Source: Patescibacteria group bacterium (GTDB lineage Bacteria; Patescibacteriota; Patescibacteriia; SG8-24; DYFX01). From it: a stretch of DNA of 64,000 bases. Below, one piece after another: positions 18,176 through 56,163 of the stretch. Location: positions 309,453 to 373,452 of the forward strand of contig CP129476.1 of assembly GCA_030583805.1 (NCBI GenBank). Direction: 5' to 3'. Below the pieces are notes generated by a model. It searched no databases. It had not been told where the DNA came from and was given only the letters and a program-made list of their open reading frames with translations. The position numbers and the translations under genes were made by a program. The first letter of the stretch is position 1, and the number at the start of each line of letters is the position of its first letter.

Positions 18176-18304
18176 ACCATCGAGACGAGGTCGGGATGAC
18201 ATTTTTGTCCCATAACGCACCATCATCGGATATTTGACGAGGATTAATCCACATGTTAGTCTTGCACCGGCTCACAACAACCACCCGAGCCATTGGAGGC
18301 AGAA

Positions 18305-34425: not shown

Positions 34426-34564
34426 GCTCAGGCATTGACGTTTCCCGCAGCGCGTGCTATTCTACAACCTTAATCAGGAGCCCCATTTCATGGGGCTGGA
34501 CTCGATCCCGTAGCGGCAGTTGTCGTGACCTAGGGGCCTCGGGTCACTGACACTATCTCTCCAC

Positions 34565-53357: not shown

Positions 53358-54047
53358 TCAGGTTTTGAGCGTTTCAACGGCCGTTTCAAGAAGAGCGAGG
53401 TCGGTGTCGTAGTCCATGCGCATCGGACCGAGGAGGCCGAGGAGGCCGATCGGCGAACGCACGACGAGGAGGCCGCATTCGGCGCCGAACGGATTTTCCG
53501 AACCGATCAGGATGCGCGTTTCGGAACCGACTTCGGGGAACATTTTTTCCATCGTCTCGTCGAGATGGTCGAGCACGCGCGACATCGAGGCGACGAGCGA
53601 GAGCTGTTTGAACTCCGGCTTGGCGAACAGATTGGCGAGGCCGGTGTAATAGACGTCGCGCGGAGCGAAGGCAGCGAGCGCCGACTCGTTCGCGAGTTCG
53701 GCGAGCGCTTTGGCGACGCGGCGCAACTTGTCGCTTTCTTCTTGCGCGGCCTCAGCGGCTTCGGCGAGCGCGGTCGCAGCGGCGGCTCCCGGTTTTTTCT
53801 TTTCGAGGAAACGATCGACGTAGTAGCGATAGCCTTTTTCGCTGGGCGCGCGTCCGGCGGAGGTGTGCGGCTGGAGCAGGAAGCCTTGTTCTTCGAGCGT
53901 CGCGAGTTCGTTCCGGATCGTCGCCGAGGAGACGTCCAGGCCGGATTCATCGGCCAGCCACGCCGAACCGACCGGCTCGGCGCTCTGGATGAAGCGCCGG
54001 ACGGTCAGTTTCAGCAGGATTTCTTGGCGAGAATCAAGCTGTTCCAT
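53358..54047 (-). CDS. hrcA: Heat-inducible transcription repressor HrcA (short form)
   Basis: Winged-HTH N-terminus PVGSAWLADESGLDVSSATIRNELATLEEQGFL. First gene of the operon, with CIRCE immediately upstream. Confidence 0.85.
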   Translation of the reverse strand: MEQLDSRQEILLKLTVRRFIQSAEPVGSAWLADESGLDVSSATIRNELATLEEQGFLLQPHTSAGRAPSEKGYRYYVDRFLEKKKPGAAAATALAEAAEAAQEESDKLRRVAKALAELANESALAAFAPRDVYYTGLANLFAKPEFKQLSLVASMSRVLDHLDETMEKMFPEVGSETRILIGSENPFGAECGLLVVRSPIGLLGLLGPMRMDYDTDLALLETAVETLKT

Positions 54048-54052
54048 AGTTT

Positions 54053-54079
54053 CTAGCACTCAGATTATACGAGTGCTAA
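54053..54079. promoter_or_regulatory. CIRCE operator (HrcA binding site)
   Basis: cTAGCACTC-agattatac-GAGTGCTAA matches TTAGCACTC-N9-GAGTGCTAA. On the reverse strand the N9 spacer contains TATAAT, with TTGACG about 15 nt upstream. Confidence 0.9.
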
Positions 54080-54103
54080 CGAACCGTCAAGCGCGCCGCC
54101 AAG

Positions 54104-54565
54104 CTTGACAAATCGATCATTTTATGGTAGGTTTTCATGGCCATGATCGCCCATGGATCATGGAGAAGAGCTCGTCTCCGAGCCCTTGGACAACATCCGC
54201 CACTTTGGAGTTATTAGCGTCAAAATCTTCCGATTTCGCCCACGAAAGGCTTGCCTTTCCGGGGGCTGGATTCCTTAGGGAGTCCAGTGTGGTCGGTGTG
54301 AGTATGACGTGAGGAGCGAAACTTTTCCCACAAGGATATAAGGTGGGAAGACCAAGCCGACGCCTGTCGGTTTCCCATTCACCTTCGGGTGGATGCATGG
54401 GTCTGGCGAACTTTTTTCCCCAACGGTAACCGACTGGTCGGCAACAGGATCGCCGACCCCCGACCATACCCGGACTTCGGTCCAAACACGGTCAGCGCAT
54501 CCTACGCCGCCAGTCGGTTACCGATCTCTCTCATCCACGGACCCTCTTGGGTCCGTTTACGTTTG
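54104..54565 (+). ncRNA. Candidate structured ncRNA unit 1 (promoter-like TTGACA-17-TAGGTT to terminator-like hairpin), identity unknown
   Basis: No credible ORF. Long inverted repeat ggtaaccgactgg...ccagtcggttacc (54421-54433 and 54509-54521). Hairpin ggaccctcttgggtcc plus a U-rich tail at 54539-54565. Confidence 0.3.
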
Positions 54566-54593
54566 TCTTGACTTTTGGCAAAAAATCCGGGAT

Positions 54594-54990
54594 GCTTGAC
54601 ATGGCGGGTCCGATCTGCTAGAACGTAGCCATCGCGGAGTACGGAACAGGTGTGCGGCATCCGCTGAAGCGCACGGCCGAAAAGGGACGAGGTGGTCCCG
54701 CTATGACCCACTGAGGCTGTCCATACCCCGCTTCGTTTCAAAGAAAGGTTGCTCTGTTTAGAGCAAGCCTAGGCACCTGTTCGGTCGATGGCTCGTCAGG
54801 CAGAGAAGCTCGAGGCTTGAGAGGCCTCAACCCCCAGAGCAATCTCACCTGGCTATCATCGATGGCGTACGCGCGAGCCCTCCCAGCAATGGTTGAGAAC
54901 CGCGTGTCCAGGCCGATGCGGCTATGTCGCAGGGCATTCGACGCCAAGAACAGACCGGACTTCCCTTGTGAAGTCCGTTTTATTTTTTCG
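54594..54990 (+). ncRNA. Candidate ncRNA unit 2 (~370 nt) between a TTGACA-17-TAGAAC promoter-like element and a strong terminator, identity unknown
   Basis: No credible ORF. Multiple local hairpins (gtgcg...cgcac, gaggcttgagaggcctc). Terminator ggacttcccttgtgaagtcc plus gttttatttttt at 54955-54987. Confidence 0.35.
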
Positions 54991-55094
54991 CACGCCCCCC
55001 CCCTTGCGGCTTGCACAGAAATAAAGAGGGGGGCCAGCGGCGCTTCCGGTCTCGTCGACAGACGGGAACCTCGGTGCAGGATCGGCATTTCTCA

Positions 55095-55157
55095 GCGGAC
55101 TCTTCAAGGGTCCGCTTTTCATTTTATAAAAAGAAAAAGTCCTGAGCATCAGGACTT
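55095..55157. terminator. Bidirectional rho-independent terminators
   Basis: Plus strand: gcggactcttcaagggtccgc followed by ttttcatttt. Minus strand: agtcctgatgctcaggact followed by tttttcttttt. Confidence 0.65.
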
Positions 55158-55385
55158 GCGACCGGGACGGCGACGAGGTCTGAGCGGCGGGGGCTTCGGC
55201 TTGGTTGCCTTGGCCGGCGCGGCTTTGCGTGCCTTCTTCGTCGCCGGAGAAGGACGCGTCGGCGCGGGCGAACGACGGACAGACAGCGTTATTGGGGCGA
55301 CGAAGTCCTTTTGCAGGATGTCCGTCTCAAGATCAGCGCCATCCGTCTTCACGACCCGAAATGCCTCGGGGTGGTCGAGATCCAT
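55149..55385 (-). CDS. Hypothetical small protein with Lys/Ala/Pro-rich basic tail (histone H1/HupB-tail-like)
   Basis: MDLDHPEAFRVVKTDG...KKARKAAPAKATKPKPPPLRPRRRPGRKS. Its stop abuts the minus-strand terminator. The start is uncertain; the track ORF extends to 55553. Confidence 0.35.
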   Translation of the reverse strand: MDLDHPEAFRVVKTDGADLETDILQKDFVAPITLSVRRSPAPTRPSPATKKARKAAPAKATKPKPPPLRPRRRPGRKS

Positions 55386-56163
55386 GACGACGATCTTCGA
55401 TCCGTTCTCCTCAGCCGCCGCCTGCTCGACGGCGGCACTGATCGAGAGGGCAATGAGCGAGAAGTTCAGGCCGCGCGTTCTTGATCCGATCACTTCTTCC
55501 TCCAAAGCCCGCCCAGCAGGAAGCCGAGCCAGGACGCGTCGAGGCGCTTGCACGCCTTGTCCACGAGAGCCAGGAGATCGACCACGCGAATCAGCGCGTT
55601 CTTTCCTTCGGGACCGCCGGAACCCATAGTGTTTCCTCCTGGGGCAAGCGTTGCACGAAAAAGGCTGTGCGTCAACATAAAAGCTCGGCGCATGCGCCGA
55701 GCAGGATCAAGAACGCTTCGTCCGTCGTTGACGGCGCGGCCTACGAGTGACCCGTTTCCGCTCCGAAGCATGGCGCACGACAGGTTCGCCGTCGCGCATG
55801 GTCACGGTAGCCAGCAGTACGGGTCGGGCGGTCCACACGATGCTTCGCCGTCGTTGCCCAACGGCCGGACCAAGGACGATGGCTTGCTCTCCTCGCTCGA
55901 AGAGATACGACCCCCGCCCCAAAGACAGCACGCGTACGGGCAAGACGTTTCTTGGGTCAGCCGCGGCCGCATAGGATGCGGCCCGAACGGCCATTTGCAC
56001 CGGATCGAAAGCGCCACGGAACGGGTCGGGACGAAACGGAACGTCTTCCGGCAACGCAACATTGTCCTGGATGCGTTCGAAGCCGCCATTCAATGGCCGC
56101 ACACGCTTGCTTGACATGTCTACCTCCGAAAAAGGTATAGAAGAAAATGGCCTACGTGTCAAT

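Follow-up and report, generated by a model that had tools for sequence, protein, structure and literature searches.

A probable cluster of non-coding RNA genes beside hrcA in a Patescibacteria genome, with a covarying multi-helix RNA at its center

The DNA analyzed here, referred to throughout as the window, is a stretch of 64,000 nucleotides from a Patescibacteria genome (contig CP129476.1, forward strand). An earlier note on this DNA had singled out a region of about 1 kb beside the gene hrcA (positions 54100–55160) that seemed to lack any protein gene and to hold two promoter-to-terminator units, proposed to be structured RNAs of unknown class. Our analysis indicates that this hrcA-adjacent gap is probably a cluster of three independently terminated non-coding RNA (ncRNA) units on the plus strand, which we call Unit 1, Unit 2 and Unit 3. 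That estimate applies to reading the units as members of new ncRNA families, each a free-standing gene whose RNA acts in trans, and excludes the specific C-rich-loop mechanism considered below. At the center of the argument is Unit 2, which is very likely a genuine structured ncRNA gene and, to judge from its homologues, a member of a new RNA family inherited beside hrcA in part of the lineage.

Comparative structure of Unit 2

The predicted Unit 2 transcript covers about 358 nt of the plus strand (54631–54988, the start being predicted from its promoter). For comparison, we fetched hrcA neighborhoods on related contigs, which carry the labels L001, L068 and so on. Homologues of Unit 2 were found on eight other Patescibacteria contigs, giving nine loci, in each case beside an hrcA gene whose product is 71–96% identical to HrcA of the window (93–96% in L001, L068, L003 and L002; 71–73% in L005, L006, L072 and L074). 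The homologues always lie on the strand opposite hrcA, between hrcA and the region of a P-type ATPase gene, and always have a TTGAC-17-TGnTA-type promoter and an intrinsic terminator. Their length ranges from about 250 to 510 nt (about 360 nt in the window), because the 5' domain and the interiors of several arms vary.

The core of the RNA is laid out as a purine-rich linker, helix P0, an AGGCGA junction, the 5' strand of helix Pa, arm H1, a three-way junction of Pb, Pc-H2 and Pd, the 3' strand of Pa and the terminator. P0 (GGUU...AGCC, 54747–54769) is a hairpin directly 5' of the junction in all nine homologues, with a compensatory change in three of the four pairs counted. The junction itself, AGGCGA in the relatives, reads AGGCAC in the window (54771–54776). 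Pa closes the core (54777–54953) by pairing 54777–83 with 54947–53, and four of its seven pairs covary, for example CUGUUC/GAACAG versus CUAUCCC/GGGAUAG versus UCAUCCC/GGGAUGG. Arm H1 (54784–54863) has a closing stem that covaries at five of five pairs and a variable interior in which a C-rich motif is always exposed, in the window CCUCAACCCCC at 54825–54835. The three-way junction (54864–54945) is built from Pb (54864–68/54941–45), Pc (54869–75/54901–07), H2 (54880–54900) and Pd (54911–54936); H2 is an invariant hairpin, CUCCC..GGNGAG, followed by AAC.

Covariation was assessed on a condensed alignment of the nine sequences that was built by hand and fitted to the structure, with variable loop interiors masked with N. 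Its seven helices comprise 39 pairs, which are 94.8% paired, and in 23 of them both partners change. The observed values were reached in none of 500 column shuffles, a count that is not a probability, and sliding the 3' partners by 1–3 columns reduced pairing to 32–42%. Additionally, RNAalifold run on a plain, unfitted MAFFT alignment of the 3' core recovered Pb, Pc (with a 3-bp extension), H2 and Pd, with 9 of 20 pairs compensatory. Minimum-free-energy folds of single sequences (the window core at 54747–54953, L002, L003 and L005) have the same architecture as the comparative model, and the predicted fold of Unit 2 has z = -3.3. Covariation across relatives, which the earlier note had suggested as a check, is thus clearly positive for Unit 2, in agreement between the condensed alignment and RNAalifold.

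The alignment also bears on strand and coding potential. About 14 G-U cells would become A-C mismatches if read on the other strand, which fixes the strand of Unit 2 as plus. Substitutions between homologues show no codon periodicity (15/17/12, 18/20/16 and 19/21/24), and many insertions or deletions of 1–2 nt separate the sequences. The lack of three-base periodicity together with these frame-breaking changes indicates that Unit 2 is non-coding. A long open reading frame (ORF) across Unit 2 in L068 was rejected as coding sequence, as it is not conserved in the homologues. A covariance model of the 3' core scored 52–95 bits on its own nine training loci and picked up nothing further, either elsewhere in the window or in 18 other hrcA loci.

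Four of the loci (the window, L001, L068 and L074) carry an optional 5' domain, which in the window occupies 54634–54731 and is closed by a stem of 54634–44 with 54721–31. Within it is a hairpin (54684–54699) with a Shine-Dalgarno-like loop, GAGGUG in the window; across the four loci the loop reads GAGGUG or GGAGGUG, with an AUG 7–8 nt downstream (54684–54713 in the window). The ORF behind this hairpin has 3 codons in the window, 3 in L001, 18 in L074 and about 115 in L068, and with such differing lengths it does not encode a conserved peptide. In four homologues, an intramolecular kissing interaction of 4–6 bp could form between the Shine-Dalgarno-like loop and the C-rich loop of H1, the 5' domain being missing in the others.

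A 12-nt inverted repeat (54641–54652/54774–54785) also involves this domain, since its upstream GAACAG rivals the 3' GAACAG (54948–53) for the 5' strand of Pa, CUGUUC. The minimum-free-energy fold of full-length Unit 2 adopts this alternative pairing. A riboswitch-like switch through these strands may exist but is not conserved: the alternative is also found in L001, but the upstream GAACAG is missing from L068.

Another variant was seen in L072 (about 3915–3700, minus strand), where a second AGGCGA-plus-helix module (AGGCGA UCAUCUC ... GAGAUGA) with the C-rich loop GAGCCUCCCCAGC lies upstream of the canonical core, with no terminator between the two. This arrangement suggests a tandem two-domain version of the Unit 2 RNA.

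Units 1 and 3 and the signals that delimit the cluster

Unit 1 is predicted to be a hairpin-rich transcript of about 430 nt (54140–54566, plus strand, again with a predicted start), recognized by its promoter motif, its terminator and its fold (z = -5.9). The long-range inverted repeat that had been described there as 13 bp is perfect and 14 bp long (54424–54437 with 54510–54523). A conserved domain of 98 nt (54425–54522) consists of a 13-bp closing stem, GGUAACCGACUGG/CCAGUCGGUUACC, enclosing three inner hairpins and the motif GACCCCCGACC. This domain recurs in two other lineages, L071 and L076–L078 (HrcA 72–77% identical to that of the window), where it sits in long gene-free stretches upstream of hrcA; in L071, the Unit 1-like RNA precedes a gene on the same strand. 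Sequence in common includes GAUCGYCGACCCCCGACC and GGUCRGCG, and the closing stem shows compensatory change at three positions across the three lineages. Outside the 98-nt domain, Unit 1 and the L071 and L076 RNAs do not align with one another.

The closest relatives, L001, L003 and L068, lack Unit 1 and have in its place a gene for a membrane protein of 159–193 amino acids, which is preceded by a TTGACA -35 element at the equivalent hrcA-adjacent position. Unit 1 is missing even from genomes whose HrcA is 96% identical to that of the window. From these comparisons Unit 1 appears to be a second, more variable RNA that is lineage-specific apart from the 98-nt domain. The proposal in the earlier note that Unit 1 is a structured ncRNA stands for this 3' domain, which shows modest covariation; it does not extend to Unit 1 as a whole, which is not conserved.

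Unit 3 was not part of that proposal. The earlier note had reported back-to-back terminators to the right of Unit 2, and both are present (55094–55116 on the plus strand and 55157–55137 on the minus strand, or, in their full extent, 55095–55125 and 55134–55157). The plus-strand one closes a third conserved unit, and the minus-strand one belongs to a convergent gene of 134 amino acids and marks the right-hand border of the RNA cluster. Unit 3 (54995–55125, plus strand) is a small element with homologues in L001, L068, L003 and L076–L078 (four other lineages). It is made up of a C-run/G-run hairpin (54995–55033), a second hairpin (55050–55067) and a conserved stretch, ACGGGAACCUCGGUGCAGGAUCGG, with the core ACGGGARMCUCGRUGCA. 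In L001, L068 and L003, Unit 3 immediately precedes a DUF3592 gene, its terminator ending about 20–25 nt ahead of the start codon; in the window and in L076 no gene lies behind it. Judged from this arrangement, Unit 3 may be a DUF3592 leader that was orphaned in the window, or an independent small RNA.

Two further features of Unit 3 were observed in L076. A TGnTATAAT sequence resembling a -10 element lies just upstream of the element, and the Unit 3-like sequence (about 1560–1415, minus strand) starts GGCC-AGGCGU-CUAUCC, much as Unit 2 does with P0/AGGCGA/Pa 5'. A distant relationship between Units 2 and 3 is possible.

The promoters read in the earlier note are both present, as is every other element it described, within 1–2 nt of the positions given there. 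That of Unit 1 (54105–54133) has TTGACA at 54105–54110 and TAGGTT at 54128–54133, joined by a 17-nt spacer ending in TGG (extended -10). That of Unit 2 (54596–54624) has TTGACA at 54596–54601 and TAGAAC at 54619–54624, with a 17-nt spacer ending in TGC (extended -10). Both take the form TTGACA-N14-TGn-TAGnnn, and they also have GCTTGACA in common. The Unit 2 promoter is kept identical in L001, L003 and L068 and has TTGAC-17-TGnTA(G/A)nnn equivalents in L002, L005, L006 and L074.

The motif TTGAC-N15-TGNTA occurs five times in the window, compared to 0.10 copies expected by chance. Its other three copies (18234–18258 and 34435–34459 on the plus strand, 45023–44999 on the minus strand) directly precede long ORFs; in one case the ORF is a DEAD-box helicase gene whose leader measures about 100 nt. 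This excess, together with the placement of the other copies ahead of long ORFs, indicates that the motif is a real promoter type of the lineage. A generic sigma-70 scan scored no promoter at Units 1 and 2, because their -10 hexamers are atypical. Judging by these motifs, the lineage seems to depend on promoters of the extended -10 kind, whose TAGnnn-like hexamers escape a standard sigma-70 scan.

Terminator-like sites are likewise frequent, with 10 found in 53800–55800 versus 2.4 expected. Unit 2 ends in the strong intrinsic terminator that had been reported for it, CGGACTTCCCTTGTGAAGTCCG + TTTTATTTTTT (54956–54988), and a terminator is found at the end of Unit 2 in every homologue. The hairpin and U-tract noted for Unit 1 lie at 54537–54566, where the T-tract, TTTACGTTTGT, is interrupted, and for this reason the terminator looks weak. 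One module, (U)CUC..CGGAC(U/C)C ... G(A/G)GUCCG-U-tract, recurs in the terminators of Units 1–3 and of their homologues. Such common promoter and terminator modules could be lineage-typical signals or the product of module duplication. As for protein genes, the seven ORFs of 62–270 amino acids in the region have no Pfam match, which bears out the earlier view that 54100–55160 holds no convincing one.

Proposed role of Unit 2 and competing explanations

The downstream neighbor of Unit 2 differs between loci, being a convergent gene in L002, L005, L006, L072 and L074 and Unit 3 in the window, L001, L003 and L068. Because no constant gene follows it and it has its own promoter and terminator, regulation in cis is unlikely and a stable trans-acting RNA is the best reading; we consider it likely that Unit 2 acts in trans.

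How it would do so is suggested by its loops. Unit 2 would be a stable, folded RNA, and arm H1 of its covarying scaffold would present C-rich motifs (CCUCCCCC-like) in single-stranded form. The H1 motif is predicted to be unpaired or in a loop in eight homologues, and in L068, where the arm used was incomplete, it was read from the sequence. In relatives the loop is GCCUCCCCCUC, UUUCCCCCUCC, CCUCCCCGC, GUCCCACCC or ACCCCGCCUC. Unit 1-type RNAs also carry C-rich loops, including GACCCCCGACC. By analogy with known C-rich regulators, the H1 motifs and the invariant CUCCC/GGNGAG hairpin could pair with G-rich or Shine-Dalgarno-like sequences of mRNAs. The Firmicutes RNAs RsaE and RoxS use C-rich regions to base-pair with their targets at G-rich or Shine-Dalgarno regions (PMC6158497, PMC8216469), and since Unit 2 has C-rich loops as these RNAs do, an analogous base-pairing role is the one we favor for it. 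We advance this pairing with RNA targets only tentatively.

Unit 2 resembles the C-rich small RNAs (sRNAs) of Firmicutes (RsaE/RoxS, and S. aureus RNAIII and the UCCC-motif Rsa RNAs) in being a stand-alone gene with its own promoter and intrinsic terminator and with C-rich loops. RsaE/RoxS, however, measure about 100 nt, comprise two or three simple hairpins and have a seed that is strongly conserved. Unit 2 is longer, at 250–510 nt, its seven-helix junction covaries, its C-run is conserved less strictly, and it shows no sequence similarity to them. Membership in the RsaE/RoxS family was rejected given the lack of an Rfam RsaE match and the difference in size and architecture.

The same C-rich motifs and CUCCC/GGNGAG hairpin might instead be the docking site of a protein partner. 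Unit 2 would then be a scaffold or sponge, the RNA part of a ribonucleoprotein (RNP) with the junction and H2 as docking site, and not a base-pairing regulator. Its covarying seven-helix core keeps AGGCGA, CUCCC..GGNGAG-AAC and CCAGGCC invariant and leaves the peripheral arms free to vary, a pattern more typical of RNAs that form an RNP or bind a ligand than of seed-type sRNAs. A protein-binding scaffold, which the elaborate conserved junction would suit, is nearly as good a reading as base pairing. However, no protein gene is consistently linked to Unit 2, whose neighbors differ among loci, and Unit 2 is missing beside hrcA in several close relatives. We regard a protein-binding scaffold as possible, if doubtful.

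A broader proposal, and a rather improbable one, is that Unit 2 is the founder of a Patescibacteria-specific class of structured RNA (an RNP subunit, a ligand-binding RNA or a catalytic RNA) tied to translation or proteostasis, with the gap upstream of hrcA serving as a hotspot for gain and loss of Units 1–3. Such a tie is suggested by the constant placement beside the hrcA-grpE-dnaK heat-shock operon and by the anti-Shine-Dalgarno-like elements. The adjacency to hrcA may simply be inherited synteny, and a link of the units to heat shock is a lead only.

Cis-acting leaders such as riboswitches or attenuators, whose terminators would regulate the gene downstream, are suggested by the position of Unit 3 directly ahead of the DUF3592 gene in L001, L068 and L003 and by the same-strand gene behind the L071 Unit 1-like RNA. 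To this extent Unit 3, and perhaps the L071 RNA, are like known leaders, which also lie ahead of a same-strand gene and end in a terminator. The units differ from such leaders in matching no riboswitch family, and Unit 2 has no consistent downstream gene, since it precedes a convergent gene in five loci and another terminated unit elsewhere. Furthermore, no conserved alternative pairing was found between Pa and the terminator of Unit 2, and Unit 3 is gene-less in the window and in L076. Control in cis is therefore unlikely as a reading of the cluster, while Unit 3 taken singly may be a leader.

Decayed coding sequence or non-functional spacer, with GC-rich hairpins arising by chance, would account for the absence of any conservation in Unit 1 outside the 98-nt domain and for the protein gene found there in relatives. 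However, tblastn with the relatives' membrane protein found nothing in the window, and the disrupted protein gene (pseudogene) that the earlier note had named as evidence to the contrary was not found. Unit 1 retains a fold with a strongly negative z score, an intact promoter and terminator, and a domain in common with L071 and L076, and for Unit 2 this explanation is ruled out by covariation. For the region as a whole we judge it very unlikely.

Known RNA classes were searched with cmscan and all 4227 families of Rfam 15, using gathering thresholds on the window, E<=10 on 53900–55800 and E<=1 on seven homologous loci. At gathering scores the whole window contained two tRNAs only. The permissive search of 53900–55800 gave only two noise hits, TCV_Pr (E=6) and, on the wrong strand, engA (E=3.6), and the homologous regions of the seven related loci gave no match. 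ARAGORN identified tRNA-Gln and tRNA-Glu in the window and no tmRNA, standard or permuted. Together these negatives indicate that the units are not RNase P RNA, tmRNA, 6S, SRP, OLE, GOLLD, HEARO or ROOL as those families are modelled. The earlier description of structured ncRNAs of unknown class, assigned to none of these families, agrees with the Rfam scans at both gathering and permissive thresholds, with ARAGORN and with the covariation of Unit 2.

It is highly improbable that the cluster includes a strongly diverged housekeeping RNA (RNase P RNA, tmRNA, 6S or SRP), missed by standard models in a lineage this reduced. Patescibacteria are known for unusual RNA biology, the units have a suitable length (about 360–430 nt), and like RNase P RNA and tmRNA they have a strong promoter and terminator and occur once each in the sequence examined. 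Unlike those RNAs, they lack the P4/CR-I/CR-V core, a tRNA-like end and a tag frame and are patchy among close relatives, being missing beside hrcA in several of them, Unit 1 even at 96% HrcA identity. The covariance models for the RNase P RNA core with CR-I to CR-V (RF00010/RF00011) were unmatched in the window and the homologous loci. The comparative structure of Unit 2 contains no long-range pairing like the P4 helix, which joins GGAAAGUCCGG-like and ACAGAAxCCGGCUUA-like strands; its GUCCRGGC segment pairs locally in Pd, with GGCUUA/UAAGCC covariation in L002. The Unit 1 sequence also lacks the P4 motifs.

The other candidates were rejected individually. For tmRNA, there is no tRNA-like acceptor/T-arm end, no tag reading frame and no Rfam match. 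6S RNA is a single long irregular hairpin of about 180–200 nt with a large central bubble, whereas Unit 2 is branched with seven helices and has no Rfam 6S match. SRP RNA (helix 8/domain IV with its conserved symmetric and asymmetric loops and GNRA loop) gave no Rfam match at permissive thresholds, and OLE, GOLLD, HEARO, ROOL, raiA and other large ncRNAs of Rfam gave no credible cmscan match.

With the raiA motif, OLE, ROOL, GOLLD and HEARO the units nevertheless share an intergenic position, a length of hundreds of nucleotides, multiple helices and recognition by covariation. Most of these orphan structured ncRNAs had no assigned function when first described. Unit 2 differs from OLE, GOLLD and ROOL in being smaller, confined to one Patescibacteria clade as far as sampled, and syntenic with hrcA. 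We found no prior description of the RNAs of this locus in the literature.

Just as improbable as a housekeeping RNA is a guide or partner of a mobile or defense system (IscB/TnpB omega RNA, IS110 bridge RNA, retron/DRT ncRNA or a TIGR/CRISPR array). Such a system would account for the changing content of the locus, where Units 1, 2 and 3 come in different combinations in close relatives. However, its neighbors are hrcA-grpE-hsp20-dnaK, small proteins without Pfam domains and the P-type ATPase, its flanks hold no nuclease, recombinase or reverse-transcriptase gene, the region contains no tandem or interspaced repeats or repeat array, BLAST against phage and plasmid collections gave no match, scans of viral contigs yielded nothing or chance matches alone for the three units, and HEARO and similar Rfam families are negative.

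Several points weigh against a cluster of new, trans-acting RNA families and against base pairing as the role of Unit 2. The Unit 2 covariation comes from nine sequences of one narrow clade, in an alignment that was hand-fitted with loop interiors masked, and transcript start sites were taken from promoter motifs alone. Unit 2 was not found beside hrcA in L004, L062–L066, L071 or L076–L079, relatives with similar HrcA identity. When 241 million metagenome records were scanned for a strict pattern (GAGAACCGC..CCRGGC..TTCGRCRCC), each of the 49 loci retrieved was a chance match in the coding DNA of an unrelated organism; with the absence in relatives, this indicates that the Unit 2 family is rare or poorly sampled. 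The C-rich motif differs among homologues (CCUCC is present in only four of nine, and L006 has only CCCACCC), and a conserved multi-helix junction exceeds what base-pairing sRNAs usually need. In Unit 1, the inner pairing of the 98-nt domain is ambiguous with three sequences from three lineages. In Unit 3, the fold is not unusually stable (z = -1.35) and covariation is weak.

Genomic setting and significance

HrcA of the window is 93–96% identical to HrcA of metagenome-assembled genomes (MAGs) labelled Patescibacteria group bacterium or Minisyncoccota, and about 72% identical to HrcA of a Candidatus Paceibacter MAG. By this protein the source genome belongs to the Patescibacteria (CPR, the candidate phyla radiation) and is Paceibacter- or Minisyncoccota-like. 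The public records name L002, L005, L006 and L007 (HrcA 72–96% identical) 'uncultured Gammaproteobacteria bacterium'; judged by HrcA, these bins are probably mislabelled.

In the window, the chaperone operon hrcA-grpE-(97 aa)-hsp20-dnaK lies on the minus strand. The ATG start codon of hrcA is at 54047, and a canonical CIRCE operator, CTAGCACTC-N9-GAGTGCTAA (54053–54079), lies 6 nt upstream of it. The hrcA promoter has a TTGACG -35 at 54090–54085 and a TATAAT within the CIRCE spacer, and no Shine-Dalgarno sequence is visible ahead of the gene. With the -35 of Unit 1 starting at 54105, the two promoters stand back to back with about 14 nt between them.

To the right of the gap, all on the minus strand, are the 134-amino-acid ORF (55149–55553), a 45-amino-acid ORF with a GGAGG ribosome-binding site and the P-type ATPase gene. 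L068 also has a 134-amino-acid gene in the equivalent position. Compared to L068, the window has about 490 additional bases between the ATPase stop and the 45-amino-acid gene (window 55630–56162). This insert holds an arginine-rich ORF of 151 amino acids (55707–56162, minus strand) without a Pfam match, followed by a strong minus-strand terminator (55702–55683). From its sequence, this part of the locus could encode a real small protein or be another non-coding unit.

The gap between hrcA and the ATPase gene varies as a whole. In a comparison of the window with L001, L003, L068, L002, L005, L006, L072, L074, L071 and L076, the relatives mix Unit 1-like, Unit 2 and Unit 3 RNAs with the 159–193-amino-acid membrane protein, the DUF3592 protein and other small ORFs. 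Among these loci, Units 1 and 2 occur together in the window only, where both protein genes have been lost.

Patescibacteria have tiny genomes with very little non-coding DNA, so it is notable that about 1 kb is given over to three RNA units here. To our knowledge, almost nothing has been reported on the regulatory RNAs of this group. Candidates for new structured RNAs appear in their hundreds, and the units are best read as new, narrowly distributed families of a familiar sort, namely structured bacterial ncRNAs with genes of their own; the family looks narrow, and the functional role of the units is a proposal. The seven-helix, covariation-supported fold of Unit 2, which has no Rfam counterpart, adds to the interest of the locus. 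With a searchable model, predicted transcript ends and a hypothesis for pairing through the C-rich loops, the locus offers a testable entry into RNA-based regulation in an uncultivated lineage.

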